This document shows, one piece after another, positions 1 to 43,500 of a stretch of 64,000 nt of DNA. The stretch is from Proteromonas lacertae (Eukaryota), in contig NGBS01000299.1 in the NCBI GenBank assembly GCA_002245135.1, positions 1-64,000 on the forward strand. Direction: 5' to 3'. Numbering within the stretch: position 1 is the first letter of the stretch; the number at the start of each line of letters is the position of its first letter. A program made the position numbers and the translations under genes. A model generated the notes under the pieces. The model did not search any database. It was given only the letters and a program-made list of their open reading frames with translations, and was not told where the DNA came from.

Positions 1-3000
1 TATTAAATGTAAAAGTGTAGTACAAAAATTAGCAATTGATAAGAAGAAGCCATTTATATATCCCAAACAGAGTTTAGGTCAAGAATGTAATTATTTTACA
101 ATATATACAGGTCTAGTTCCTAATCAATATATGAGTAGATTATTACAATACATATTATCATTAGATGTTATTCAAAATGTCTATTATGTTGGTAATAATG
201 ATAATGATACAATGTTTTTTTTGATATATTTGCTGATGCTTCTAGTGATTATTATTACATCAAAATGACTTATATATAAATGAATCATACAGCTTAAATG
301 TAGATAGAGTTAAATCCAATATATTTTCATATAGGAATAATATAGATGATGTGGTGTTATTATTGTATATTTATCAATTGTAGAAGCTATTCAATTTATG
401 GAAATATGTAGTGATATTAAAATAGACAAATCTAAATGGAATATATTTATAATGAATATAGAGATTGAAGAAATTACTAGTAGTGGTGTATCTTCAGAAA
501 TATTAAATAATATACATATTATTTCTCATTACTTTTCTGATGTAGTTTCTGATGTAAATGAAAAAAACAAAAGAAGTAGTATATCATTATACTGCAGTTG
601 AAAATCCATCTGCCTTGTATATTTCTACATATGTTGGTATAATGTTATTGAAAAATGCAATTGTTGGTATATATGAAAATAGTAACGGCAATATATCAAG
701 TATATATAATTGGGATATACTAAGGAAGAGTATGTATCATAGAACAGTTGAATTTGGTGCAGGAATAATCACATTAGAACCAAATCATCATGTCAATTTA
801 CCTTTTTTCGTAGGGAAATATTCATCAACAGAAAAGAGGTTTATTACTGTTTATTCTAAGTTTGATCATTCTGAAGCAGAGGCTTGGAGTTGGTATTTGC
901 AAGAATATACTGGAAAGCAATGTAATTATGAAGGTAAAGGTGAAATATATGATGTTAAAACCATAAGAATATTATTAGTTGGAAGTATCACTGGTGGAGA
1001 TAGTGAAGAAAATAAGGGTATTGTTGATGTATATCAATTAGTAATTGATGAAGTTAATGAATTAGGAGGAATCAAGGATTTCATCCTAAAAGGTGATATC
1101 TATGATACTCAATCTAATACTAATTATTGTAGTAACTATATACTTCAATATAAAGCAAAATATCATCCATATTTAATACTAGTATCTGCTGAAGAAGAAT
1201 GTATAAAGAAAGTAATAGAGAGTGAAGATGATACATCCTCGTTTTATTTAGTATTAAATCAAGTAAATATTGGTTATTGTAAATCAAATGTTATATTATC
1301 TGGATTTCATCCTACACTTTATGAGAATATTTTAGATGTATTAATAAATAGAGAATATAATAATTATCTGTTAATTGGATCTTCCTATTATCATGTTACA
1401 GGCTTTGTGACTTTGTATTTTAAGAAATACGGATATAAATTCTATGAGCCATTAGTGTTTGATACAAATATAACTAAAGAAAACATTACCGAATATCTAA
1501 ACAAATTCATGTTAACATCACCAAGGAATGAAAGTAACATAATCATATTTGTTGGATATAATCTACAATTCGATGTATTGCAAGAAGTATTAACAAAGTT
1601 GAATCTATCTGAACCATATATGAATGTAATATCATTATATATGTATTATGAGTTAAAGAAAGGCAATATTATTGATTTTGAAGGTGTAACTGGATATAAC
1701 TATCGATCACAAACTAAAGAGAATAAATTATTCATTGAAAATATGCAACAACGTTTAGGTTCAAAAGATGAAATAACAGATGCAATAGAAAGAAGTTATT
1801 CTGCATTTAGATTAATGGTAAAAGCTATGAATGAAAGTTCAGAATTAACATATTTATCAATAAAAGAATCAATATTTAAAGTCAAATATAATTCTCCAGA
1901 AGGGGAAATATCACTTGCAGTGAATCAACAAATGAAAAGAAAAATGATCATTTTTAAAGTAGATAAAAATGATGGTAAAGAAATAATTACATTTCAAACT
2001 GGAAATTATGTAGAACCAATAATATATTACACTATTGATTCAACTTATCCAGTGTGCGATTTTACTGATAAAACGATTGGTGAAAAAGGACTTCCAACTA
2101 CTTATGCAATCGGATTATTATATTCAATGACAGGTGCATGGAAAGGTATTGAAATACAAATATTCCATACGATTCTATTAGGATTATCAGATATAAATGA
2201 AAGAAAATATTTTGGTGATACATATGTTATATATGAATTATATGATACAAAATCAAGTGTAAAAGGTTATGTTGATGGATTTAATTCATTCAAAGCAAAT
2301 GGTAATATTTTGTATGTATTTGGAGGATCAAATCATGAGACATATCAAGCATTACTTCCATTATTCGAAAAGGTTAGAAAAATATTCATTTATACTGGAA
2401 TTAATTATAATACTGAGTGTTATGCTCATACATTTTCAGTTTCAAAACATCCATCACAAATAGCTGAAGCTAGTTTACATTATCTAATAGAATCAACTAC
2501 AAATGTAGTATTATTACATTCTGAGAAATCTGAATATTCTAAAGTGGTCTATAAATGGATTTATAATAGGTTTACTAATGTATCAATGGGGATTATTGGT
2601 AATATAGAGTATACAACAGCTAATTATGCAGTTCATTCAATAAATACAGTATTAAGAAATGGTGGTTATATTTTGAATATATTATCTGATGAAAAAGAGA
2701 ATTTAAATTTCTTTAATGAAATGTGTAAATCAAATCTATTACCAAATAAATACAAGGTTATAAGTGTATTAATAGATGAAAATTTAATACATAAAGTTGA
2801 TAATATGAAATGTATGAAAGGAAATGTGTTGTTAGATACATATTTTGAGTCATTAGGAAATAAAGCATTGAATAAAATTGGTGTTATTAATTTATCAACT
2901 TCATTTAATATTGCATTACATTCCTATTTAGGATCAAATATAAGAATAACAAGTTTACATGAAAGTGCATATTCTGGATTATTAATATGGTCAAATACAA

Positions 3001-5539
3001 TTAGTAAGCTAAGTACAGCAGATCAATATGATATTACCAAAATTATTGGTATATTTACCATATCCAATTCAGTTCCATCGGATTCAGTAGATGTTGAAAA
3101 GAATAATTTACTTTCTAGAAGAATGTATGCTGCTACTGTAACTCCAAATAATCAATTATTAATTGAATATGGTCCAAAAGGTGTATTTTATCCTGAATTG
3201 TTTAATCAATACACTAATACAACAGGATGGTTTTGTGATGTAACAAGAACTAATCAGGAATATAGTTACTATAGTTATCCACTATATATTGCATTTATAC
3301 ATGAAAAAGATGTAGGTGTGAAAACTGAAATATATATGTCATTAGTAGAAGATGCAACAATTAGAGATATTAATGATAATGGTGGTGTATTGAATCATAG
3401 ATTAATTGGTGTTCATTTCTTCCCTTCTAAACATCTAATATTTGCTAAAGCTCGTGAAATTACTCTCAGTAATCAATATCAAATTATAATTGGTTGTATG
3501 ACATCTTATTGCAGAGATGAAGTTAGTAGATATGTTAATAGAAATGATAATGATATGTTATTCATTGATACAGGTAGAGATAATGGCAATGCATGTTATA
3601 GAAAGACAGTTATAACTGGAACAACAATGGCTCAAAAATTACCTTTATTATTGGATTATTTAAACAATGTTGGTATTCATAATATAATAATTATTGGTTT
3701 GAATGATGCTTATTCTGTTATAGAAGCTAATGAGATTTATAATAAGACAATTGATGCTGGTTATAATATTGAAGGAATATTTTATTGTTCGCCATACAAT
3801 AAAGAAGAAATAGCAAAGATTATGTCGAATATTACTGATATTATTAGTAGAATTGGTAGAGTAGGAGTGTTTAATTTATTTGAATCAAATCAGAATCAAG
3901 TTTTAAGCGAATATTTAGTAGCTTTTGGTGCTAGATTTAACGTTTTTAATATGATTTTCTTTAACTTTGAACCATTTGAGTTTACTGATGATATGTTAGT
4001 TCAATTAACAGGATCTTTTGTTGTTTCATCATATTCTACTGTTTTATCTGAAACAACAAGTGATACATTCAGTTATACACTTAGTACAGAATTTACAAAA
4101 TACAGTCAAATGTCTGAAAGTATAGAATCAGCTTATGTAGCAATAAAGTTGTGGGAATCTGCATTAGAATATGCTTCAACACAAACAAAAGAAGAAATAC
4201 CAAGTAGAGCTTATCTTCGTCTGAGTTATTTTAATGTCAGACTTACAGCACCATCTGGAGCAGTAAATGTCCAACATAACAATCATTTATCTAAAAGTGT
4301 AACATTATTTAAAATTAATAATGATAATCTTGATTTAGTAACACCAAGAAAAGGAGTAAAATATTATCCACCTGATATATTATATGGAGTTCAATCTTGC
4401 GATTGTACTTTTGATAAAGATGAATTTGAATATCTATATAATGATGCAATTGGTGCAATAGTAATAGTGTTAGCTGTTATTAACTATCTATTAGCATGCT
4501 TTGTATCAACATTAGTACAATTATATAAACATACAAAAGTAATAGTTAGTGCAAGTCCAGCATTTATTAATTATGCTTTATTTGCATTAGCATTAATTTC
4601 TACTGAAGGATTAATGTTTACATTTAGACCAACAGAGGTTTGGGTTTGTATTGTAAGAGTATGGGGATTAGCATTAAGTATTTTACTCTTATTCAGTATA
4701 ATATTTTCAAAAGCATGGAGAATTAATAAATTATTTAACAATAAGCAATTGGCAAGAGTTAAAATATCTAACAAACAGTTATTACAGATGATTGGTTTGA
4801 TGATGTTTTGTGAATTGGTTTATTTGACAATTTGGTGGGTTGTAGATCAAAGTAAACCTACTTTAAGATTAGGTATTTCTCATTCAAATTTTTTAGAGAA
4901 TGTGTATTTGGTGGAATGCACTCAGAATGATTATTTTGTGTATAATATATTTATATTTATATTTATATTTATTTAAATAGAATTATTCAAGTATTGTTAT
5001 TGTTGTTTTTATTTTGTTATGGTGGTAAATTGGCTTGGAATGTTAGAAATGCTGCTTCTGAATTCAATGAATCAATGTCTTTAGCAATGACAATAGCATT
5101 GATATGTATTGCAGGAATAATTGAAGTTCCATTAAATTACTTAATGATTGATAATCCAGACGTATTATTGATTTTTAGAGGTATTGGAATTGAAATATGC
5201 ACATTATTCATCATAGTGATTCAATTTGGTTCAAAATTGACATATATATGGGTTAATGAAATTAGAACAACAGGAGGATCTTCTTTAAGTGGTCCTACAG
5301 ATAATTCTGGTAAAAGTGGGTCGAAAACAAATCTAGCTTATCAAAGAAATAATGCAAGAAATGCATCAGGAGTAAATTATCCTATTGAACCAGATATATT
5401 GAAGTGTAGTGATTTGACTTTATGTTCATTATCAAATCCAGAGTTATTCTTCTTAGAAGCAACAACTAATAGTTGTATTTGTAAAAACTCTAGAAAAGCA
5501 TCATCAACTTTAATTGCTCAACCACTCAATTGTGTGTAA
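1..5539 (+). CDS. Class C (GABA-B/mGluR-like) GPCR with at least 4 tandem UrtA/AmiC-type periplasmic-binding domains; 5' end lies outside the window
   Basis: 7TM motifs VIVSASPAF, CIVRVWGLALS, FSKAWRINKLF and AWNVRNAASEFNES. Intron 4940-4980 joins ORF 558-4976 to ORF 4994-5539 in frame. PBP starts: IRILLVGSITG..IDEVNELGGI (~960), AIGLLYSMTG..DINE (~2106), IAFIH..DINDNGGVLN (~3288). Bases 2-210 read PFIYPKQSLGQECNYFTIYTGLVPNQ (UrtA-like). Homopolymer frameshifts lie between ~215 and 567. Confidence 0.88.
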
Positions 5540-5612: not shown

Positions 5613-7343
5613 TCACTCTATTTTATCTTCAATTTTCTTAGATTCTTTTATATAACTAGCATTCTCTAAATCTAATACTGTTTCCTTCATTTTCTCTTTA
5701 TTTGTTAAATCAATACAACATTTCAATCCTATTTTTTCTGCCATTCCATTAACTCTCTTCAAATACTCAATCTTTTGTTCTGGTTTTAATATTGTCATAT
5801 GTCTAACACTTTCCAAAGTAACACAACAATCAGGTTTTAATAAATTCACAATTTCAGGATTATCCAATAAATGAACACTTACATTTGAAAATACGACACG
5901 ATGGAATAAATGATTAAATCTTTTCTTCTTATACATATTATTAAAATCTCCTGTGATGAAAAACACTTTAATATTATCAAATGATTGGATGATTTCTAAA
6001 GCTGTCATTTCAGCTCTTTTTTCTTTCTCTTTTAATAAATCTTCTTCTTCTTCTTCTTTTGTTTCTGTATTTTCTTCTTCTTCCTTTATTGTATTTAATT
6101 TATTAATATTCTCTTTTGGAAGTTCAGGAGTATCTTTACTTGCAGATGGTGGTGTTGGAGTTGATTTATCTTCTCTCATATCCTTAGGTTCTTCATTCTT
6201 TTCATCATCATTCAAACCACTAAATATCTATTAATAACAAATATAATAATAATAATAATATACATCATGTTCTTTTCTCATTTTATAGATTCTACCTGTT
6301 TCAATCTCAGTAAAATAACACAACAAATTATATACACTAACTTCACAACAATTATGTCTCCATTGTTCAGCTCCAGTACCTTTATTCAAAACTAAAAACA
6401 AATCCTTAGCATAATTATTAGACTTATAACAATCAATACCAAATGTAATATAAGGAGAAATAGTAATATCAGTCCATAAACCTCTTCTTAATAACGCTTT
6501 TCCTCTCTCATGACCTTCACAATAAGATATCATTGTTCTATTTGGCTTGTTATAGACTTGATCACCAAATTCAAATCCTATTCCTGTTGTTCTCCATGTC
6601 TTATAAAGTTTCTTATGAATTATACCTGCTGTATCATGCACACCATTCATATTGTAATCCCAATCGATTAGATTAGTTCTATTATCATATCTGTCTCTGT
6701 AGGAATGACGTAATCTGTCATCATATAGTCGTTCTATATCACATGGTATTCTTGAATCGTATGACTTTAATACTTCTTCTATCTCATCTTTTTCTTTATA
6801 TTTTAGACAGGAAAAATCGACAATATCATTAAGAAAACCTTGATTATTGCATAATAGGTTGATTAATGATTTAGATTGTTGATATACATATGATTCAGTT
6901 CTTTCCTACAATTAAATATAGAAACATGAATGTTTATATACTTGTAACAGTATATTTCCATATACTTCTAACCATGTGTTTATTCTAGTTCGAATAGGCA
7001 TTGACCAGTCTGTAGCAATTTGCATCATTAGTAAATCTTTGGTAATTACTTCAATTGGTTTGTCATAAATATAGAAATGAATAGCTTGATTTCCATGCAA
7101 TCTACGCCTTTCAGAAATGGTCTTTAGAATATGTCTAATATCACCTGGTTCTACTAATAAAATATTGTAAGGCTCATCTTCATGCTGTACTATTTAATTG
7201 ATATACTTAATTGGATTATACAAGGGAATTGATTGTACAATTGAGGAGTTTCATATAAATTCATAGCAGGAGAGAACCCCCACATGTGATGTACTCCAAT
7301 ATTTAGATCAGCCTATAGAAATAAACACTTCATCAAATACCAT
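5613..7343 (-). CDS. DNAAF3: Dynein axonemal assembly factor 3 (PF22; DUF4470/DUF4471)
   Basis: Spliced reading M|ADLNIGVHHMWGFSPAMNL, NILLVEPGDIRHILKTIS, YRDRYDNRTNLIDWDY, WRTTGIGFE, PNRTM, RGLWTDITISPYITFGI. Several short GT-AG introns. Confidence 0.88.
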
Positions 7344-12874: not shown

Positions 12875-14515
12875 ATGAAATTCATTTATTTGATATTTTG
12901 CTTATCTGTTTGTTTTGCCTCAGAATTCAGATTCTCAACTGCTATTGGAGATCACATGGTTCTTCAAGTATATTTATTATTTCTATTAACTCTGATTTTG
13001 TAGAGAGCTCCCGAAAGAGCAGCAATATGGGGATATGCAGGTATTGATGATGAAGTGAGGGTGAAATTTGATGGAAATGAATATATAGCAAATCGTGAAG
13101 GAAAGTATAACTAAACATTGTTATTTATGAAATTGAATAGTCGTTGGAAAGTGTTATTACCTCCAACCGAAGCATCTAATAAAGTATATGAAATATCAGC
13201 TTCTACAAGTAATGGTGAAACCATTTCAGTTTCAGACATACTATTTGGAGATGTTTGGTTTTGTTCAGGTCAATCTAATATGGAGATGGTACTAAATCAA
13301 GATCGAAACGGTAAAGAGACGATGGCTGAAGCTGGAAATTACACTCAAATTCGATTATTAACAATTTCTCGAGGTTGGGATATTAACAAAACTGTGGATG
13401 ATTTAAGCATATCAGATTATAGACAGTTATGGAGTGTGAACAGTCCTAGTGCTTTAGATGGAGGAAAGACTTTCTCATATTTCAGTGCTGTTTGTTATTA
13501 TTATGGATTAGAATTACATAAAACTCTAAAGATTCCAATTGGATTAGTTTCATCATCCTTTGGTGGAAGTCTTATTGAAGCTTGGTCAACTCCTAACGTT
13601 ATTAATAGTTGTAGTAATATTGCTTGGGAAGGAAACAATGAAGGTAATAAACATCCTGGTGCATTCTTTAACAAGATGATTCATCCTTTATTAAACATGA
13701 CAATAAAAGGAATGATTTGGTATCAAGGCGAAGAGAATGTAAAGTTCAATCCTGGAAATATAAAACACAATGATGGTTATCCATGTTTATTTAGACATTT
13801 TATTGAAGAATATCGAAGATTATGGAGTTTAATTCCAGGAACTACCAATAATAATTTCCCTTTTGGATTTGTTCAGCTCAGTGGATATTGTCCAGGTCCA
13901 AATCATTTGTGTAATAATGATATAGGAGTTGGTAACTTAAGATTTGCTCAAACTGTAGAACAAGGATTTGTTCCTAATAAATATTTACCCAATACATTCA
14001 TGGCAGTATCAATGGATTTGCAAGATCCTTATTCTTCATCTGGTGAAATTCATCCTGGATATAAGAAGATAATAGGAGAAAGATTAGCAATGGGTTCTTT
14101 TCATTATGCGTATGGTTTAAATAGTTATACAAATGGTCCATCTTATGAAAGTTGTGAGATTAATGGTGATGAATTGATTGTAAATTTAACAAGATCAATG
14201 TTTTATGAAGATGAAATCGAGATAAGACACAATTATGGATTTGAAGTGAATGTTGGAAATTCTTCAAATGCAGTATGGAAGAAAGTATCAATAAAAAGCA
14301 ATAAAGATATGAGTGTAGTAGTTGATGTGAAAGGAGTGAAGAATATAGTTGGTTTGAGATATATTTGGAGAGATAACGCTTGTTGTCCAGAATCCTATGA
14401 AGGTAAATCTGGTTTTACTTGTGGTATATTAAACTGTCCATTATATGGTAAACAGTCAAAATTACCAACTCCTGGTTTTATATCTAAAATCGTTGATGGA
14501 GTATGTTTATTATAA
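12875..14515 (+). CDS. SIAE: Secreted sialate O-acetylesterase (SGNH/SASA domain)
   Basis: Signal peptide MKFIYLIFCLSVCFA; GDHMVLQ|RAP; GDVWFCSGQSNM; GGSLIEAWS; IWYQGE; FGFVQL; IHP. Two short introns near 12968 and 13105. Confidence 0.92.
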
Positions 14516-26430: not shown

Positions 26431-27424
26431 TTAATTAATTATTTTTGAATGAGATAAAGCTGAGGAAACACTAGCAATTTCTGTTGTTTGATCCATTTCT
26501 CTGGCAGGGTTAACTATACTTTTAGATTTACTAATTATAGATGCTGGTACACCTACAGCTGTTACATTATCTGGTAGACTCCTCAAAACAACAGAATTAC
26601 TTCCAATCTTCACATTCTTACCTATATTTATATTGCCCAGTATTTTTACACCACATCCAACCATCACATTATTACCAAGTTTTGGATGTCTATCACCTGA
26701 TTCTTTGCCAGTACCTCCCAGTGTTACTTCGTGAAGGAATGAACAATTATCTCCAACGACAGCTGTTTCTCCAATTACTAATCCAGTTGCATGATCTATT
26801 AATATTCCTTTTCCTAATTTTGCTCCTGGATGAATATCTACATTGAAAACTTCACTAATTCTACTTTGAAAACATAAAGCTAATTCTCTTCTATTATGAG
26901 TGTATAAATAATGAGCTATCCTATAACTTTCTAAGGCTAAAAACCCTTTAAAAAATAAAACTTGTAATGGATTTTCACATGCTGGATCTCTTGTACACAC
27001 TGATATTATATCTTCTCGTATTGTATTTGCTAAATCTGAATTCTCTGTTAATATGCTAGTGATTAAATTATGTAAGTGCGAATGATGTAACATGTCATTC
27101 TTGAGTTTATCTGATAAACAGAAGGCAATTGATGATTCAAATGAGTTGTGATATAATATAGTTGAACTAACATAATTAGCTAGTATTGGCTCTTTTGTTA
27201 ACATGATTTCTGCATGATGTCTTATTCTATACATTAAAATGATTAACTTGGTTATATATACAATTGCCATAATATATCTATGCACTGAATTGAATATGAT
27301 GATTGAACTGACTATATTATGATAATAAACGAAAATCTATACTGCAATACAACTAGATTGTATATCAATCTGATGAGGTAATGAAAATCCAACTTGTAGG
27401 AATTGAAGGACAATTTGCTAACAT
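26431..27424 (-). CDS. cysE: Serine O-acetyltransferase (5' end uncertain)
   Basis: Spliced DILWQLIRHHAE..KEPIL; RDPAC; FKGFLAL; VDIHPGAKLGKGILIDHATG; VTLGGTGKESGDRHPK; TAVGVPA. Confidence 0.93.
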
Positions 27425-29310: not shown

Positions 29311-30860
29311 TTATGGAGTATCAAAAGTTGATTCTTTTGGAGTTGTTGGGGTTTTATTAACTCCTCCTTTCTATAAAATACACTAAATAATGCAATATAT
29401 ACTGTAGCCTTCTTTTTATTACGAAGATTATCATAGAAAGAAGCAATTCTATCCTTCTATATTGAAAATAGTAATTAAAATAAAATACATTTGTATTTGC
29501 TGCAACAGATATTGTCTTCTTACCAACTGTAGTTGTTGTACTGCTAGCCACTTTTGTATCTTTGAATAAAGAATCAATAAAACAATCAGGATCAAGTATA
29601 TAATCATCTTCATCTCTTCTCTATTACATATTAATAATATATATACTGTAGAATTATCTGCAGGAGTTAATGGAGTTGGTGTTCTTGCATTTTCCTCAAT
29701 TTCTAATCTCAAAGTATTCAATTTATCTTCATTATCCCAACCAGAAGGGATAAATATATTTTTAATGTCATTTCTTCCTCTGTAATGATAGTTAAATATA
29801 TTTGGGTAAAATCTATGATATAAATAGGTTTGTAATTGTAATAGATTCATATTGGAACTTTCTTGTATGGAAGTATAACAAACAGCAGCTCGATCTATAA
29901 TAATAATAATAATAATAATAAACAAATATATACATCTATAAGCAGCAGATCTAAGATAATTAGATACAATTTTAGATTTCTGTGGTATACCAACTGATTC
30001 ACAATGTGTACAAATGAAAACAATTGGAATTCCACAATTCTCAAATGAACTATTATCATCATTAGTATCATTTGAAGGAGTTGAAGGATATTCATCCTTA
30101 TTCATACCATCCTGTTGTTGATTTTGTTGTTGTTTTAATGGTGTTGTAGGTGTAGCAATGGGTGTCTCTAATACATTTACTATTGATTGGTTTAATCTAT
30201 TTACAATTATATCATTCTCATCATCTTCGGTTGGTTCTTTATAATTCTTTAAGTATTCTACTATATTTTGCTTGGCTATATTTAATTGTTCTTCAGAGAC
30301 ATTGAATTGCTTATCTAAATGATCCATCCACTATTTTATAGATATAATAATATTATTATATGTTATTTTTTATACAGATTCTATGCTTTTTTGAATTACT
30401 TCAACAGATTTTGTTAAATCAATAACAATTGCAATTATTGACTAAATTACAGGAAAATAAAATAAAATATATACATTGTGTATTGTTGAATCATTAATAT
30501 AAAACAGTAATTGACTTCTTAGACTTTGGTGAGATATTGAGTAAATATTAAGATTGACATCAGGACCTATGAATAGTAATGATATTGTAACAATACCAAT
30601 TGGAGATGAAGATGGGGCTTTTGGATGAATAAGAGGAATAGCTTGATATGCACAAATTAATGGTGTTTTATTCTCTTGATCTTTTTTCTTACGCTGACAA
30701 CCTAAAGCTTTCATGAGTGTTTTCTTACCAACACCCATATCGCCTTAATTGAATAGATAATTACAAATATACCTAACAAAAACAATGTACTTTCCGGCAT
30801 TGTTGATTCTTTAGCAATATCATCTAAAATTGCTGACCACAATGATTTATTTTGATCCAT
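29311..30860 (-). CDS. DYNC1LI: Cytoplasmic dynein 1 light intermediate chain
   Basis: MDQNKSLWSAIL; P-loop-like LLGDMGVGKKTL; CGIPIVFICT; IFIPSGWDNEDK; C-terminal IASFYDNL helix. Many short introns. Confidence 0.85.
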
Positions 30861-33932: not shown

Positions 33933-34179
33933 ATTCTCTGATAAAAACTAACAACAATTACAAAAAAATAATTATCGTTTCACATTCAGTTATACAAAAT
34001 TAAAAAGTTTCTTATTCTAACATCAAAATGAAAGAAAAGAGTAAAATGCTTTTTTATGATAGTTCGTGTAACATCAATATTTATCCCAACATATACTTAT
34101 GTTATTTTTATTGATTAATTTTATTCTTCAAATGAACAAAAAGCTTGACTTGTCAAACAATTTATTAAAAAGATATTTG

Positions 34180-37135
34180 ATGATATTTATTTTGCTTTTT
34201 CTCTTCTGTCTATCACGTACTGAGCTTGTGACTAATGCTACTGTTGAGATATATTATGATTCTCACGAAGCATTATATCTAAACTATGAACAAGGGTATG
34301 TTAACAAAATTGTGAATCATCACAACTTTAAACTATCTGCTGGTCCTGCCAAGGCTACATTTGATATAAATAATCATGAAATCACATTATTACATTACTT
34401 CCCACAACCTAAGCCGGAAGAAAAGCCAATACTAGGTGCTTATTCACCAATGTACAATAAAGTGTTATATATAGGAGTATTTAGAGGTGCTAATAGAAAG
34501 GATAAGACTAAATGTACTCCAATAGCTAAAGCCAAAGAATATGTGAAATATGTAGATCTAGGTATGAGACTGTGGGGTGCAAACCAATTTAGAATATCTC
34601 AAGGTGATGATTTATATGTTAGTTCCCAATGTTTAGTAATTGATGAATCAATTTATGTAGAAGGCAATTCAGGTACAATTAACAATGAATTGTATAATGC
34701 AGCTGCAAAGATTGATAAAATACCCAAAGTTGCTGTAAGATGGTATGTAAATGATGATTATTTAGGAGGATGGTTAGGTTTAGCAGCTGTTGGTAGTCCA
34801 ATGGTTGTAGCAAATAGAAATTCAAACTATTGGTTAATATGCAAATATAATCCAAGTGTTGAAGATCTAGGTAATGCTAAATTAACAACAATAATGCATG
34901 AGTTTGGTCATAGTACTGGTTTCCACCATGGAGGTACGCAAAACGCTGATGCAACAGGAGTATTTACTACTTTTAATGCAGTTGATAACTATTATGATTG
35001 TGGTAATATAATGGGAAATTGTGCTCCTTGGGATAGAACGATTACTGCTAATCAATATTTTGTTATGATTGTAAGAAGTAAGCCAGAACCGTGGATGTTT
35101 AAATATCCTGAGGAAGGTATTCATAAATATAGATTATATGCATTTGATCATCCGTATTCAAGATATTTCTTAGGTACAAATGTATCATTCCACAATGATA
35201 CTGAAGTGTTTGATGGAATTCCATTTAAATATAACTGTATAGCAATCAGAGTGTTAGTTAATAAAAATATGACCAGTAAATATATAGGAGCAGATGGAAC
35301 ATCTGGTTCAATAATGTTAGAATATAAATGGAATGGTGGAGGAACACAAGGGCCTCAAGAATTTGGTGTGAGAGTAACTTATGGTTTTCATCAAACTGGT
35401 AATTTATTACAAGCAAATTTTGACGGTTTTAAAACCTGGGGAGATAGTGAAATAATGACAGGAGTTGATTATTATCCGTCTGATTTTGATACAGGAACCT
35501 TAAGAATTAGGAGTAACAAAAATACATAGAACAGTATTGAAAGAAGCTAAAGAAATTGAAATAGCTAAAGAAGATAAAAGAAGATATGATGAACCAGGTT
35601 ATGTAGAATTAGAAATTGAATATTTTCCAAATAGGAAACCACCAACATTATCACCTCCCAAAGATTTACCTAATTTCCAAACATCTCCAAGCTTCTTTAA
35701 CTGTAAAAAGAAAGATGATGGTAGTGGTTATACTTGTTCAAGATCTACTACAGCTAGTGGATGGTTTTACTTTATAAATAACGGAAATAGAGATAAGAAT
35801 ATACCAAGATGGTATACAGCAAAAAAGGATGTTATTAGAAACAGAATATCACTTCGTTCTTTTAATGGTAATGATTACTCAAGTACATTATTATGTTATG
35901 GAGATAAAGGTAGGAAATGCATAACAATGAATGTAGAATCAGTAAGTTTCTCAGGTGTTACAAGAAAGAATTATCAAAATGGTAGAGTAACTAGAACTAA
36001 ATCAAATGATGGAAATGCAACAGCTGAAGATTTAGGAAATGCAAATGTAATCTATGGTAGTGGTTTAGAAGTTCCTGAAGGTGGAAGAGCTTATATTACT
36101 GATTTATTTGGTAATGAAAGAGATATAAAAGTAGTTAATAAAGAATTTGTGGAATTATTACCTCCATTAGAAACTGATGGATTTACTGAAGGAGCTGTAG
36201 TAGTAAAAGATAAAAGTGGAAAAGTAACATATTATAATGGTTTTACATTCTATCATCCAGAAAATGGAAATAGAGCAGCAGTTCAATTTAATGATAATGG
36301 TGGATATACATTATCTGCAGCAGTTATGCCAAATGAAAAGTGGTCTACAACAACAACATTATTATATCCAATTACAGTAAAAGCAAATAATTGGTTTACT
36401 TATCCTATCACATATATGAGAGATAATGATTTTGTATTTTTTGATTTTAAAGGGAAAATACCAAGTGGATTAGTAATGACAATTGAATCAGATAATGGTG
36501 AATTTTCAAAAGATTTAAGTGCTTTAGAAGGTTTGAATAGTGCATCATATAAAATTACGTTTTTAGAAATGAATAAAGTAACAGGTGGTTGGGGTGAGAT
36601 CAACAGAGTCAGATTTAATAAAGATGTTCAACTACAGAATATAAGACCAGTATATGCTAGTAAAGTTGGAAATCAAATAACAGCAGTAAAAGCTGTGAAA
36701 GAAAGTTTCAATTTCAATGGTTATAGATACACAGTAGATGTTCCTGCTACTCAAGCAACGTATATTTACAACAAAGTGGATGTAGATATAAATGGTGAAG
36801 AATATACATTTGATAGTTCAACAACTTCTCAAACAGTAAAAAGTATAGAAAAGAAAGGATTAAGCACTTTTGTAATAGTTTTAATAATTTTAGCAGTTGT
36901 AGTTGTATTAGCTGGAATAATCTTTATATATTGTAAAATCAAATCAAAGAATAGAGGAAGTAGTAGAACTTATACACAAAATGCATATTCAAGTAGACCT
37001 GTTGGTGCTGCATCTACTTATAGACCACCACCTGTTGCTATGGGTGGTACATATGGTCCAAGAGGTACACTTCCACCAAGAGGTCCAGCACCTAGTGGTT
37101 ATGCTGGAGGTTATGCTGGTGGATATAGAAGATAA
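34180..37135 (+). CDS. Type I membrane zinc metalloprotease, metzincin (M11 gametolysin-like); one frameshift
   Basis: Signal MIFILLFLFCLSRT; HEFGHSTGFHHG (HExxHxxGxxH); Met-turn YYDCGNIMG; single TM helix (FVIVLIILAVVVVLAGIIFIYC) and a P/G/Y-rich tail. Removing one A at 35502-35503 fuses the two ORFs (DTGTL-ELGVTKIH). Confidence 0.75.
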
Positions 37136-37309
37136 TTTTATATTATACTTTATTATGTTTTATATTCATATATTTTTATAAATGTTGAATTCTATTTGTA
37201 AACTCATAAATAAAATAGTTTAAGATATGTACATTAAACATATTCATTTTTTTTAATAAATGCATAAACGACTCTATTTTTAGATTTCATTTTTTAATTT
37301 CATTTTTAT

Positions 37310-40300
37310 ATGAGATTCAATATATTTATTCTCTTTTTAATATTTTCGTTTACAATAGCGAAGCCTGGTGGCAAATCTTTACCTATATGTATGACTGTTA
37401 TATTATTTTTAGGTGCATTTTTCAATGAAGGAAGTGAGTCATCTGAATCTACAACATCTTGGTGTAAAGAAGGGATATTGGTTGAATTAGCAGCTAGAGT
37501 ATGCTTTTTTATCTATAATTGTCAGTCTGCTGTTGAAGTTATCAATAGTAACGATACATTAAACATAGAAATTAATTTTCACGCTCATGATTGTGAAAAC
37601 TGGGAGTATATATTGTATTGTATATTCTGTAAAGAGGGAAATGTTTAAGTGAAGTAGAAAAATCAATAAAATATGACAATCCATGGATAATAATGGGTGC
37701 AGGATCTAGGTATGTTTATTTTAGTTATATTTATTGTTGTCATTATAGTGAAATATCAAAATTTGTTCAATTTTATTGTATGTCATACAATATGAATCAA
37801 ATTGATTATGGTTCAACTGCTTCTGTCTTATCTGATGTGTTTAAATACACCAATTTAGCAAGAGTATCCGTTACAGATAGATATTTAACAGATGCTTTAT
37901 TTGATTTGATATTAAAAATCGGATGGAAATATATAACAATAATAGCAGAGAATTCTGATTATGGTACTTCCAGTTCTGAGATGTTTATTCATACAGCAGA
38001 AAAGAAACAAATTGATTTAGAAATTATAGTATATATAATATATTTAATTATAATTTATTTTTATTAATATAGGGAAGTTATTTAATTGAATCACATGTTA
38101 GTTTACCATACACTGAAGATTCATTAGAAAGAGTGACAAGAATATTACAAAAAATAAAAGAAGGAGAAAGTAGAGTAATTATACTATTTTCACATTCATC
38201 AGTAGCACAAGCAATATTATACAAAGCAAATGAACTTGGATTAATTGGTAAAGGTTGGAGTTGGATATCAACGAAATGGGGTGTTGTAGATACATGGAAA
38301 ATGAGTAATGAAAAATACTCTGAGACAATAAAGCAAGCAATGGAAGGAGTAATTGGTGTATCAGCTACAAAAGGTGACAAAAATTTGTTATATGAAAAGA
38401 TGAAGAATTACAGTGAGAAACATCCTGAAGTAGTCGATGAATTAAAAAGGAAGTGTGATTTAGATGAATTAGTGATTGACACACAAGAGATGACACCAAT
38501 GATATTTTATGCTTATGATACTATTCAAGTAATAGCAGATGCATTTTTAATAAAGTATATTTTGTTATTTTTTATTTATTTACTTTCTAGCAATGATAAT
38601 AAAACCTTCTTTGATTCATTAAAAGATAGAGAATTTCAGGGAATAACAGGATCTATTCGATTCGATAATAGCTTTGATAGAATTAGTACAACAGTTGATG
38701 TAACAAATATGAGAGATGGAAAATTGTATGTTGTTGGTAAATGGAATCCTGATATTATAAGTATTTTTTACTTCTTTTTTTAAATTCTTTAATAGATGGA
38801 ACGATATATAAAGGTTCTGGCACATTTAAGAAGACAGATAAAATATATTATGCAGATAAAACTACAAATATTCCATCAGATCGATTTATAGAAGAAGAAA
38901 GTTCAACTGCTGAATTTTTCACAATTGTTACTTTGTTGTTAGTAACTTCATTAGCATGTGGAGCTGTAATTGAAGAATTTGATATTCATCGATTTCCAGA
39001 AACTGCCGCAGTTGTAATTTTAGGTATTATTACTGGATTGGTAATTCGTTATGGGTTTGGCAAAGGTCTTCAAAGAGTATATAATATATTATTATTGTTA
39101 TTATTATTATTATCAATTAATAGACAGCAATGTTCAACGAAGAATTCTTTTCATTGATTCTTTTACCCATTATTATATTTGAATCAGGTTTTGGTATGAA
39201 GAATAAAGAATTCTTCGTTAAACATATTGGAACAATCTTAGTATATGCTGTAATTGGTGCATTTATGACAGCTATGTTGGTTGGTTCAATGTTATTAATT
39301 CCATTCAATAATAATTGGTTTTCATTTAAATGGAGTATATTTGAAGATTTTTCTTATGGTTCATTAATATCAGCAACAGATCCTGTTTCAACATTAGCAA
39401 TATTTGGATCATTAAAAGTAGAACCAATGTTAAATATGTTAATATTTGGTGAAAGCGTTGTAAATGATGCTGTATCAATTGTATTATTCAAAACATTCAC
39501 TGGATTTATGGTTACTGATATTACAAAAACCGCAATCTTATGGGCAATAGCCAAATTCTTTATTATGTTTATAGGTTCAACTTTAATTGGAATAGTTTTA
39601 GCTATTCTCTGTTCATTAGTTTTAAAAGTTTCTCCTATACACCATCCAGTGTTAGAATCAGCAATTATCTTCCTGGTTTCATATATGTCATTTGAAATAT
39701 GTGAAGCATTAACACTCTCTGGTATTACTTCAAGTGTATTCTGTGGAATTGCTATGAATTATACAGCTAGAAAGAGAATGAGTGTGAAAGGAAAAGAGTT
39801 TAGTTACACAATGTTTAGAATGCTTGCTCAAATATCTGAAACATTTATATTCTTTCAAGTATAATTATATATATATATATAATAGATTGGTTTGAATGTG
39901 TTCTTATATATGGATATTAAAGATGTTCCATTTGGCTTGACTTTCTGGATTTTATTTGAAATTGTTATTATTCGAATATTTATGATTACCTTCCTTACTT
40001 TCTTTGTAAATTTATCTCGTAAGTCTAATAAAATACCTTATAATTATCAAGTGATTCAAATATATGCTGGATTAAGAGGAGCAATTGCTTACTCTTTATC
40101 AGTTTCTTTCCCAAGTCATAATAGACCAACCATTGTTGCGTATTTATATATATATATATATTATGTGATTATATTGTTATAGTGCAACTATGTGGATCAT
40201 TTTATTAACACTATTCATACAAGGATGTAGTACCTATGATATGTTGAAATGGATGAAAATACCACTTGGTGTTGAGTATGTTAAGCCTCCAGAAATGAAG

Positions 40301-40459
40301 CAAGAACATGATCTAAGTGAATTACTTGATGCATATACTCCTAAATCTTTGAAGAAGCTGTTTAGTAAATCATCACGTAGTGTTAATTCATCAAGAAGAA
40401 AAGCTAATGAAGAATATTTATTAGCTGAAGATATGGATGATGAAATAGTATATCAATAA
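37310..40459 (+). CDS. Venus-flytrap (ANF-receptor-type) ligand-binding domain fused to a CPA1 Na+/H+ exchanger (NHE8/NHX-like)
   Basis: Signal peptide. VFT motifs AVEVINSN, IMGAGSS, QIDYGSTASVLSD..YTNLAR, GWKYITII..DYG, RVIILF, FQGITGSIRFD. Intron 38761-38795 splices in frame to IYYADKTTNIPSDR-EEESS-TM1. NHE motifs FPET, LLPIIIFESG, ISATDPVSTL, FGESVVNDAVSIV, AGLRGAIA. Confidence 0.88.
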
Positions 40460-40529
40460 TAATATGACTTTCTTCATCATTTTAATATTTGTGGGGTAAG
40501 AAAATAATTTTGGAACACCAATATTCAAA

Positions 40530-43500
40530 ATGAATCATGTATGGTGTAAATCTATCAGTTCAATAGAGAAAAAAATATCAGAAAGAGTATCATTGCATTA
40601 TTCTGATCATAGTCTTTGGATTTTCTTAAGAATTTGTGTAGTAATTCTCAAACCATCTTTTCTTGTGAGAAATGTTTAACAAACTTTTCAAATTTATACT
40701 ACAAATACCAACAAAAATCAGTATGTCGAGATTTTATTTTTATCTCTAGGAAAATCCACTCAAACAGATAATTATCGACTATGCTCAGAAATGCTGCGGT
40801 TTAAATAATGAAAATCTCCAAAATCTTCGTGATTTTCTTCAATCTTTAAGAAAATATCCATTTAGGGTAAAATTTCTAAAATCTTATTCACCTAGTTATT
40901 TTTAAAAGATGAAACATTTTATAACTGTATAAAATTGAAGATAGACTATTTAATTTACAACCAAATTGTACTTCAATGGAATGACAAAAATGGTGTTTTA
41001 CTATTGTTTTCTGATTGTAGTGAATTGAGATATTATGTTAGCGTATGTTTTATAAATATCTATAAGCAAATATCAATACCAAAATCAGTATTTAATATCC
41101 TGTCAAAAGGATTAGAGGATAATAAAACAAACGAAATGTTGGAATTATTAATGAATGGTTTTATTTCATTAATGAAATCTACACAATTTAAACATTCAAA
41201 TGAATTTCAATCATTTATAAATGCATTATTCAAAATACAATGTGATATATATATTGATAGTTTACCATTATATGTATTAATATATATATATATATTTGTT
41301 ATTATTTTTAATAATTCTATAGAGTATGAAATTCTTATTAACATGTTCATATTTTGAACCAAGTACATATTCTACTCTTCTTAGAACTGAATTTATTGGT
41401 GAGTATGTATATATATAATATAATATAATGAATAGAGACGTATCAATGAGATGTTTATCAATGTTATGTGATGGTAATATAACGCCATCAGCAGCTGCAA
41501 TTTATGAAATGTTAAAAACGAAAACAATAAATGAAAATCTATTTTATAATGAAGTAATCAATCAGTTTTCATCTAAAAGAGACAGTATAATGAATGGAAT
41601 ATTTGCAGTGACATTTATTTCAATAATAGACTCCTGGTCTAGGAATAATTTGAATGAATTTTTATTTCCTCGTAAATTAATAGATTATGCTCAACATAGA
41701 GGGATTAGTATATTATTATTTGGTGATAATAGTAATAAATATTCTTTTAATGAAATTTATAAAGAAATTCAGAGTATTAAACAGAAATGTGATTCTGGAG
41801 ATGATAATAGAAATCCATATCAATTGTTAGGAGAATATTTCATTACATTAGAGTCAAAAACAAATATTAAGGTATATAGAGATGTTTTATTGAATCTATT
41901 AACAGCTATGAGTATTTATGCAATAAAATCTACAGCGTATAAATTTATATCTTTTTATATATTTCATAGAAAAGAATATCAGTATAAGATTATTAAAGAT
42001 TTATACAACAATTTAACAGCACCATATATAAACAAATATCCAATAATAAATGATGAAGAGTTATATAAAGCATTATTCAAGTTTCATTCATGTTTTAATT
42101 ACCACTTAGATATTGAAGAAGTGTGCTATAAGTGTCAGTTATTAGGAAGTGCTAAGACTGAATTGGTGTTTAATACTCTTATTCAAGGTATAAAAGATGA
42201 ATGGATTCATGATTCTAATGAATCTTCAGTTATGGTTATTAGATTAATACATTTATCAGCTTTTATTAGTAACTATTTGAAAATACATATAAATGATATT
42301 TATGTATTTATAATAATTATATATTTTTAGTTGGTAAATGAATATCTAAATGTAGTTAAACAAGATTTGTATTTACACTCAATTAATCACTTTAATGATC
42401 ATGTTAGTGCTTCTATTCCTGCGTTTAGAGTATATTATAACTTATTGTAATTATTAATGTTTAGATTTTTGTAAAGTATTTAACTTCGGAGAAAAGAGAA
42501 ATATTATTTGCATCATTACAACAATTTACAGTTAAATTTATGTACAAATTTACTCCAAAAGATTTATCAGATTTTAATGATTTATTTGAAGAAGGAGATA
42601 GTGGTTCATCATCTTCTTCTCTTTCTCCAGAACAGTATAAAATCAAAATGATTGACAATACAATTGAACATGATCAACATTTAATGGTATTGAATAATCT
42701 AGAAGGTTCAAATATTAATTATTATTTCGATAATATATTCACATGTGAAAAGTGTTTAGAATGTTATAGAAAATTACCAATTGAAATACAACAAAATCCA
42801 TTAATAGCAACATCCTTAAAACATGTTTTATGTTCAAAGGATGTAGATTTAATAAATCGATGTTTTGATAGTTTATATATATTTCCAATACATATATTAG
42901 TTAAATCAACTGTTCAAGATTATATGAAATCTGGAATAAGAACTTTAGAAAATAATAATTATGTTGCAAAATGGAAGAATAAAGAAACAGGGATGTATAT
43001 TGCGTGTCATAATCAATCATTAAGAGAATATGCATTAATGGTCACTAATATAAAGGAAATAGATTATAGTGGATTGTATGGGTTAATTGATATATTACAA
43101 GATGCAGAATCACCTTATAGAAATTGTATATATATATATATATATTAATCATCTATAGTATATCCTGTGAATAATATTTGGACTTGTCTTGGCTATTTGT
43201 TCAGTTCCTTACATAATCCTTATCCAGTTACTTTTATTGATTTATTAATGAAATGTTTGACACTATTATCATCACCTGTTACTAAATTGATGTGTTTATC
43301 TGTATTATATATTTATTGTATATATTATTTTCTTTAAATAGTCATGTTTTTTCACAAGTTGTTGTATTATCAGTTCATGGTATAATGAAGCTACCTTTCA
43401 GACTCCTGAATTTAAAAGAATGATTGGTAAAGGATTATTATTTTATATTCATCCAGCTAACCATTCACAATTTCCATTCATTGTACATAGATTGAATTTA

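Follow-up and report, generated by a model that had tools for sequence, protein, structure and literature searches.

One gene of Proteromonas lacertae encodes a Venus-flytrap (VFT) receptor domain joined to a cation/proton exchanger, and it belongs to a real and conserved family of receptor–exchanger fusions that is apparently undescribed. The gene lies on the forward strand of contig NGBS01000299.1, within the 64,000-nt stretch analysed here (positions 1 to 64,000), which we call the window. The order along the chain is a predicted signal peptide, the VFT domain, a short stalk and a CPA1 exchanger.

Gene structure and the join between the two domains

Removal of ten GT..AG introns of 24-47 nt leaves one stop-free frame of 932 aa, running from the ATG at 37310 to the TAA at 40459. 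The original prediction had joined seven fragments through short introns into one protein; the one protein stands, but the fragments are replaced by 11 exons. The coordinates, junction intron and motifs that it named are all present in the window sequence, and the two Pfam families that it implied, ANF_receptor (in three exons) and Na_H_Exchanger (in one exon), are both found in the gene. The features are as follows.

37310-40459, + strand: whole gene, 11 exons, 932 aa (stop-free frame and homolog alignments)
37310-37388, 37413-37498, 37526-37605, 37635-37709, 37749-38028, 38073-38554, + strand: exons 1-6
38591-38760, 38796-39076, 39124-39858, 39886-40139, 40183-40459, + strand: exons 7-11
37389-37412, 37499-37525, 37606-37634, 37710-37748, 38029-38072, + strand: introns 1-5
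38555-38590, 38761-38795, 39077-39123, 39859-39885, 40140-40182, + strand: introns 6-10
37310-37363, + strand: signal peptide, aa 1 to ~18, predicted by eye (basic start, 13-residue hydrophobic run)
37376-38884, + strand: VFT (ANF_receptor) and terminal stalk, aa ~23-447, exons 1-8 (Pfam, profile, fold of homolog P0141)
38274-38276, + strand: K268 codon, lobe-2 pocket position, equivalent of CaSR E297 (E or D in 21/27 filled family rows)
38761-38795, + strand: junction intron, 35 nt, phase 1 (retention stops at TAA 38781-38783)
38873-38884, + strand: PxDR motif (P444, D446, R447), end of the VFT stalk (identical in 29/29 rows)
38903-40270, + strand: CPA1 Na+/H+ exchanger membrane domain, aa ~454-870, exons 8-11 (Pfam, homolog profile, fold of P0141)
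39373-39384, + strand: CPA motif positions 1-4, A595-T596-D597-P598 (family alignment; motif as given in PMC6181914)
39463-39468, + strand: ND motif N625-D626, with the ion-binding aspartate (family alignment; NHE9 equivalents as given in PMC7737618)
40271-40459, + strand: predicted cytosolic tail, ~60 aa (0 Pfam families for 40184-40456)

A hydrophobic leader also begins the full-length homologs P0086, P0138, P0140 and P0141. At 37389 and 38555 the splice options are not separated by the homolog profile, some alternatives, or retention, scoring equal or at most 7 bits higher. Intron 37389-37412 was kept in the model because a Blastocystis intron lies at the identical position, and intron 38555-38590 because the close fragment P0132 shows the spliced length.

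Does the junction intron join two domains of one chain, or has the gene model fused two neighbours, one for a secreted VFT protein that stops at TAA 38783 and one for the exchanger? That TAA is in frame when the intron is retained, and PMC5608401 describes chimeric gene models arising in Blastocystis from stops made by polyadenylation. On a profile made from 28 homologs, with the window protein left out, however, the 38761-38795 splice ranks top at 821 bits, six alternative in-frame splice pairs at the junction reach 798-816 bits, and retention gives a 424-aa product of 189 bits. An exchanger encoded on its own would lack a start codon ahead of helix 2; the first in-frame Met comes after the second helix. 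The Blastocystis polyadenylation motif, TGTTTGTT, is absent from all of 37000-40600. Moreover, the exon downstream of the intron encodes the VFT's own stalk. In the metagenome loci L003, L006 and L010 the last VFT strand, the stalk and helices 1-2 lie within a single stop-free exon, the junction intron being absent from Blastocystis homologs, and single chains without introns are known from other lineages. The window model aligns straight across the junction with the uninterrupted protein P0086 (31% identity, 869 columns, E 4e-110), and the window protein with Blastocystis ST1 proteins (35% over about 870 columns, E about 1e-170). We conclude that the join is strongly supported, being settled by homologs that carry both domains in one chain; two adjacent genes are scarcely credible. 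The in-frame splice without a separate start that had been predicted agrees with the best profile score and with the lack of any Met before helix 3. A minor retained-intron isoform may nevertheless secrete the VFT alone.

The introns themselves can be followed into a Blastocystis-like locus. Homolog P0138 maps completely onto L006 (979-4912, - strand) as 17 exons over a gene span of 3,934 nt. P0138 is recorded on a contig of 3,188 nt, shorter than that gene, so it is most simply taken as a spliced transcript. Seven of the ten window introns lie within two residues of an L006 intron, in a comparison of positions. The family also contains an intron-free fusion copy.

The gene at 35504-37135 (+), which ends 174 nt ahead of the fusion ATG, encodes a protein that crosses the membrane once, has a tail rich in Gly, Pro and Tyr and belongs to no known family; the one at 34072-35529 (+) matches a reprolysin-like metallopeptidase weakly (E 3e-4, short of the cut-off). 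At 558-5539 (+) a class C GPCR-like gene carries three tandem periplasmic-binding domains followed by 7tm_3. Further matches are to a sialic acid acetylesterase (SASA; 13115-14515, +), a serine acetyltransferase (26431-27336, -), a dynein light intermediate chain (29449-30330, -) and DUF4471 (5613-6905, -), the last of which we take to be linked to dynein assembly. The dynein chain and DUF4471 may be a hint that the organism bears flagella.

Exchanger, stalk and flytrap pocket

What kind of transporter is the membrane part? The Na_H_Exchanger family (PF00999) matches 39124-39861 with E 3e-39. A structural model of P0141 (pLDDT 81.5, pTM 0.61), the homolog whose fold we take for the window protein, superimposes on human NHE3 (7x2u_B) with Z 45.9 and rmsd 2.8 over 437 residues, and thus has the NhaA-type exchanger fold. 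A first model, of P0086 with alignment A1, was poor (pLDDT 58), and its Foldseek result was set aside.

The ion site is canonical. D597, P598, E621, N625, D626, R786 and R820 are identical in all 29 rows of the family alignment, which bears out the original prediction that the transport motifs are intact. The residues diagnostic of the NhaP-I/NHE clade of CPA1 are thus present throughout: Glu at motif position 5 (E621), Asn-Asp at positions 6-7 (N625, D626) and Arg at position 8 (R786), each in 29/29. E621 stands one turn before the ND motif, and R786 is its expected salt-bridge partner. Position 1 is the non-polar Ala in 28/29 rows (A-T-D-P in the window protein) and Ser in Blastocystis ST1; position 2 is Val in 16, Thr in 12 and Ile in 1. 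The family site agrees with the CPA motif of electroneutral CPA1s as defined in PMC6181914, and its residues match the NHE9 ion site described in PMC7737618. The membrane part is, on these residues, an intact CPA1 exchanger of the NhaP-I/NHE clade; electroneutral cation/H+ exchange is predicted for it. According to PMC6181914, Ser or Thr at position 1 marks K+-selective clades; the Ser is that of the Blastocystis ST1 member P0138.

The amino-terminal half is a flytrap by sequence and by fold. ANF_receptor (PF01094) matches three exons, two of them with E 9e-14 and E 4e-13 and one, short of the Pfam cut-off, with E 6e-5. The family VFT profile finds AtGLR3.4 as its best solved match (E 6e-40) and also GABA-B2, T1R3, mGlu8 and CaSR. 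The P0141 model superimposes on the mGlu2-4 entry 8wgb_R (Z 39.0, rmsd 2.6, 393 residues), and its N-terminal half also on mGlu, GABA-B1 and AtGLR3.4 flytraps (Z 37-39) and on LivK/LivJ (Z 38.4 and 37.6). PF01094 is thus accompanied by the two-lobed type I periplasmic-binding fold; Peripla_BP_6 likewise matches many family members. Several other proteins carry more than one flytrap: P0115 has three ANF domains and a TRP-family match, P0102 two and a glutamate-receptor channel, and P0098, P0099, P0103 and P0112 have three or four ANF domains in tandem.

Is the pocket of the flytrap kept? We took as pocket positions the equivalents of CaSR S147, S170, D190, Y218 and E297, the roles of four being those given in PMC4977154 and that of the D190 equivalent following mGlu1 D208 (PMC5372683). 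By alignment, at least four of the five are kept in 17 of the 24 fully filled rows, and all five in 9. The window protein keeps four by the same alignment, Lys replacing the E297 equivalent; its closest fragments also have Lys or Arg there. Blastocystis ST1 (P0138) and L023 keep one of five. Between two Blastocystis-like loci the intron-containing VFT segments are 66-74% identical. Residues of this kind are no proof of binding: GABA-B2 does not bind GABA, and pocket-like Ser, Thr and Asp persist in it. In most members an amino acid or a similar small acid is the likely ligand. In the lineage of the window protein, Lys at the lobe-2 site would point to another ligand, perhaps one that is more anionic, or to sensing that has become weaker.

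The stalk is of constant length. From R447 to the helix 1 glycine G473 there are 26 residues in 29/29 rows, and an alignment-free count restricted to a span of five residues gives the same spacing in 30/31. The segments just before the stalk vary (8-36 and 15-24 residues), as do three later exchanger loops (16-29, 27-33 and 26-33 residues), and the median identity across the family is 42% in the exchanger and 23% in the VFT. Many intervals within the membrane domain are also invariant in length, however, so the fixed stalk could reflect packing rather than signalling.

Distribution and descent of the family

How widespread is the fusion? When an exchanger exon was searched against longer proteins, the best two of 84 matches (P0001, P0002) were uninterrupted two-domain chains, and P0086, a cluster-mate of the third, is a full fusion of 944 aa. 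A VFT exon found 35 matches in the representative library, with four more two-domain proteins among the 27 scanned. With the exchanger frame of locus L019 as query, 36 matches came back. The top 25 of these belong to the fusion family: 22 of them hold PF01094 and PF00999 in one chain, and the remaining three start inside the VFT region and retain the stalk. Named cluster members come from Blastocystis ST1 (OAO14364.1, 'sodium/hydrogen antiporter NHE8'; KAM7456809.1), Platysulcus tardus (a TransDecoder-style EukProt entry), Picozoa SAG31, COSAG01 and COSAG05; two partial entries are filed under Symbiodinium sp. KB8, a label given here as filed. A motif scan of metagenomes yielded 32 loci, of which 20 match the exchanger (13 of these with VFT or stalk sequence upstream) and 12 match nothing. 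In L001, L002, L012 and L023 VFT sequence and exchanger share one stop-free frame. The fusion is strongly supported, on such chains, as a conserved family and not a one-off.

Other searches added little. Alignment A1, used as a profile, drew too many candidates and left 7 matches, three of them family fragments, and the ESM Atlas gave no usable match. Scans with P0141, which detect close relatives only, found one weak VFT-only locus in prokaryote genomes and none in viral contigs. LLPIIIFESG was rejected as a diagnostic motif: of the 32 loci that carry it, 12 do not match the queries, the exchangers of L018 and L022 stand without a flytrap, and the motif recurs in the unfused clade described below.

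A quick exchanger-domain tree of 101 rows, with SH-aLRT support only, left out 14 near-duplicates and all rows with fewer than 340 residues of the query covered; L019 counted as fused on the ground of similarity, although its contig carries the exchanger only, and P0007, P0147 and P0157 entered with partial VFTs. Blastocystis and the window protein are sisters (99), and Platysulcus and L023 join them next (95), so the window probably comes from a relative of Blastocystis; all remaining fused rows fall into two clades (99, 96). Within the same open fork lie seven unfused long-branch exchangers (P0038, P0049, P0055, P0057, P0067, P0163 and P0166), so that the exchanger can presumably work without a VFT; this clade may have lost it. 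P0163 has a scramblase domain ahead of its exchanger. A single origin of the fused exchangers is neither shown nor rejected (support 44). Orthology with NHE8 (SLC9A8) was rejected: in this tree the NHE8s of Dysidea and Acanthaster form a separate clade (99) and the fused rows lie elsewhere (96, 98), so the database label 'NHE8' does not denote orthology.

Have the two domains travelled together? The VFT tree, in which the fused rows need 2 changes, recovers several of the exchanger subclades but puts Platysulcus and L023 elsewhere. In trees of 26 proteins, 14 of 23 splits are common to both domains, against a mean of 0.17 and a maximum of 3 in 2000 shuffles, which argues that both domains were mostly inherited together.

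Proposed mechanism, its rivals and known systems

If the two domains are one protein, what might the one do to the other? We propose, with the chances about even, that a small molecule outside the cell or in a lumen regulates electroneutral cation/H+ exchange through closure of the VFT. The signal peptide and the 13-helix NHE topology would place the flytrap outside the cell or in the lumen of an organelle. NHE9 has an extracellular N-terminus, and its TM1 packs on TM8 of the partner to form the dimer interface (PMC7737618); a flytrap in the same position would sit outside or in the lumen, tied to the scaffold. A ligand would close the two lobes, and the stalk, of about ten residues, would transmit the closure to helix 1, part of the dimer-interface scaffold. 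A shift of the scaffold would then release or restrain the elevator motion of the core, and pH or Na+/K+ would change locally as the output, without a G protein. We infer the ligand, the coupling, the location and the sign of the effect on exchange alike. The wider proposal is of a new class of receptors at the cell surface or in organelles, an ancient eukaryotic family common to Picozoa and stramenopiles, whose flytrap would gate a secondary active transporter directly; neither a G protein nor a channel or enzyme would be needed to convert an outside metabolite into a signal of pH or cations. This we hold to be a little less probable than its contrary.

The main rival, which we consider rather unlikely, is that the exchanger is constitutive and the flytrap a ligand-free structural module serving assembly, trafficking or the binding of a partner protein. 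Amino-terminal domains play such a role in many glutamate receptor channels, and the best solved match of the VFT profile is just such a region, that of AtGLR3.4. The degenerate pockets of Blastocystis ST1 and L023 (1/5), in which the domain is retained all the same, the 66-74% identity of the VFT segments in the two Blastocystis-like loci and the many other length-invariant intervals of the membrane domain point the same way. So does K268, which stands in the window protein where E297K inactivates CaSR (PMC4977154); this and the two degenerate pockets argue against ligand control. On the other hand, the invariant stalk, constant in length, and the pocket, kept at 4 or 5 of 5 positions in most members of three subclades despite ~23% VFT identity, would favour ligand control of antiport.

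We think it improbable that what the flytrap detects is pH or an ion, in the way of CaSR and Ca2+, and not an organic ligand, or that the coupling runs in reverse and reports the state of the exchanger to a partner. One family VFT, searched as a single sequence, matches CaSR and T1R3 best, and mGlu1 responds to Ca2+ (PMC5372683), but among the positions conserved in at least 85% of rows no acidic cluster stands out beyond the canonical pocket. A fused substrate-binding protein that hands an organic solute to a transporter put to a new use, after the manner of the ABC and TRAP systems of bacteria, is very improbable: the Peripla_BP_6 and LivK/LivJ matches recall it, but the cation site is canonical and invariant, with no sign of an altered substrate.

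The original prediction held the architecture to be undescribed. We found no description in the open literature, subscription papers lying outside the scope of the search, but the architecture already stands unremarked in public databases, as the 'NHE8' entry OAO14364.1. The main text of PMC5608401 (most of its supplements were outside the scope) has no mention of exchanger, antiporter, GPCR or flytrap, and that of PMC6181914 none of fusion, fused, receptor or stramenopile. If gating by the flytrap is true, this is a new receptor class, an outside-facing flytrap on an elevator transporter would be a new receptor output, and the family would offer a natural test of gating through the scaffold domain of the NHE dimer. 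In Blastocystis, a very common human gut protist, it would be a candidate gut-metabolite sensor hidden under the name NHE8, and engineered pH tools that a ligand can switch might be modelled on it. Even if there is no gating, an unrecognised exchanger family extends across distant eukaryote lineages.

How do known systems compare? The nearest functional precedent is the sperm Na+/H+ exchanger SLC9C1, likewise a CPA1 exchanger fused to receptor or channel modules, a voltage sensor and a cyclic-nucleotide domain; its ligand domain is cytosolic and C-terminal and binds cAMP (PMC10620091), whereas the module of the window family is an N-terminal flytrap predicted to face outside. Pfam detected neither a CNBD nor a voltage sensor in those exons of the gene that were scanned, nor in the fused homologs, the ~60-aa tail matches no family, and proteins of the SLC9C1 and SOS1 type fall in the outgroup of the exchanger tree. 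NHE6-9 and NHE1-3, also of the NhaP-I/NHE clade of CPA1, share the fold and the ion site but have short or unstructured N-termini in place of the flytrap. To our knowledge, control acts from the cytosolic side in the ligand-regulated exchangers described to date. KefC, of the KefC/KefB pair, is a ligand-gated antiporter, as is proposed here, but it belongs to CPA2 and is gated by a cytosolic KTN domain.

On the receptor side, flytrap domains drive GPCRs, channels and enzymes. The glutamate receptor channels (AtGLR3.4, the amino-terminal domain of NMDA receptors) include the best sequence match of the VFT profile, but neither an S1S2 ligand domain nor a Lig_chan pore occurs in the window exons scanned or in the fused homologs. 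Nor do these contain 7tm_3 or a cysteine-rich domain, the effector being an exchanger and not that of a class C GPCR (GABA-B, mGlu, CaSR, T1R); the VFT fold and a stalk of the W-x-G-G..P-x-D type running into the first helix are nonetheless alike, and so, by alignment and in most members, are the pocket positions. Membrane guanylyl cyclases and Venus kinase receptors also couple a VFT to a non-GPCR effector, which in them is an enzyme behind one helix and in the present family a transporter.
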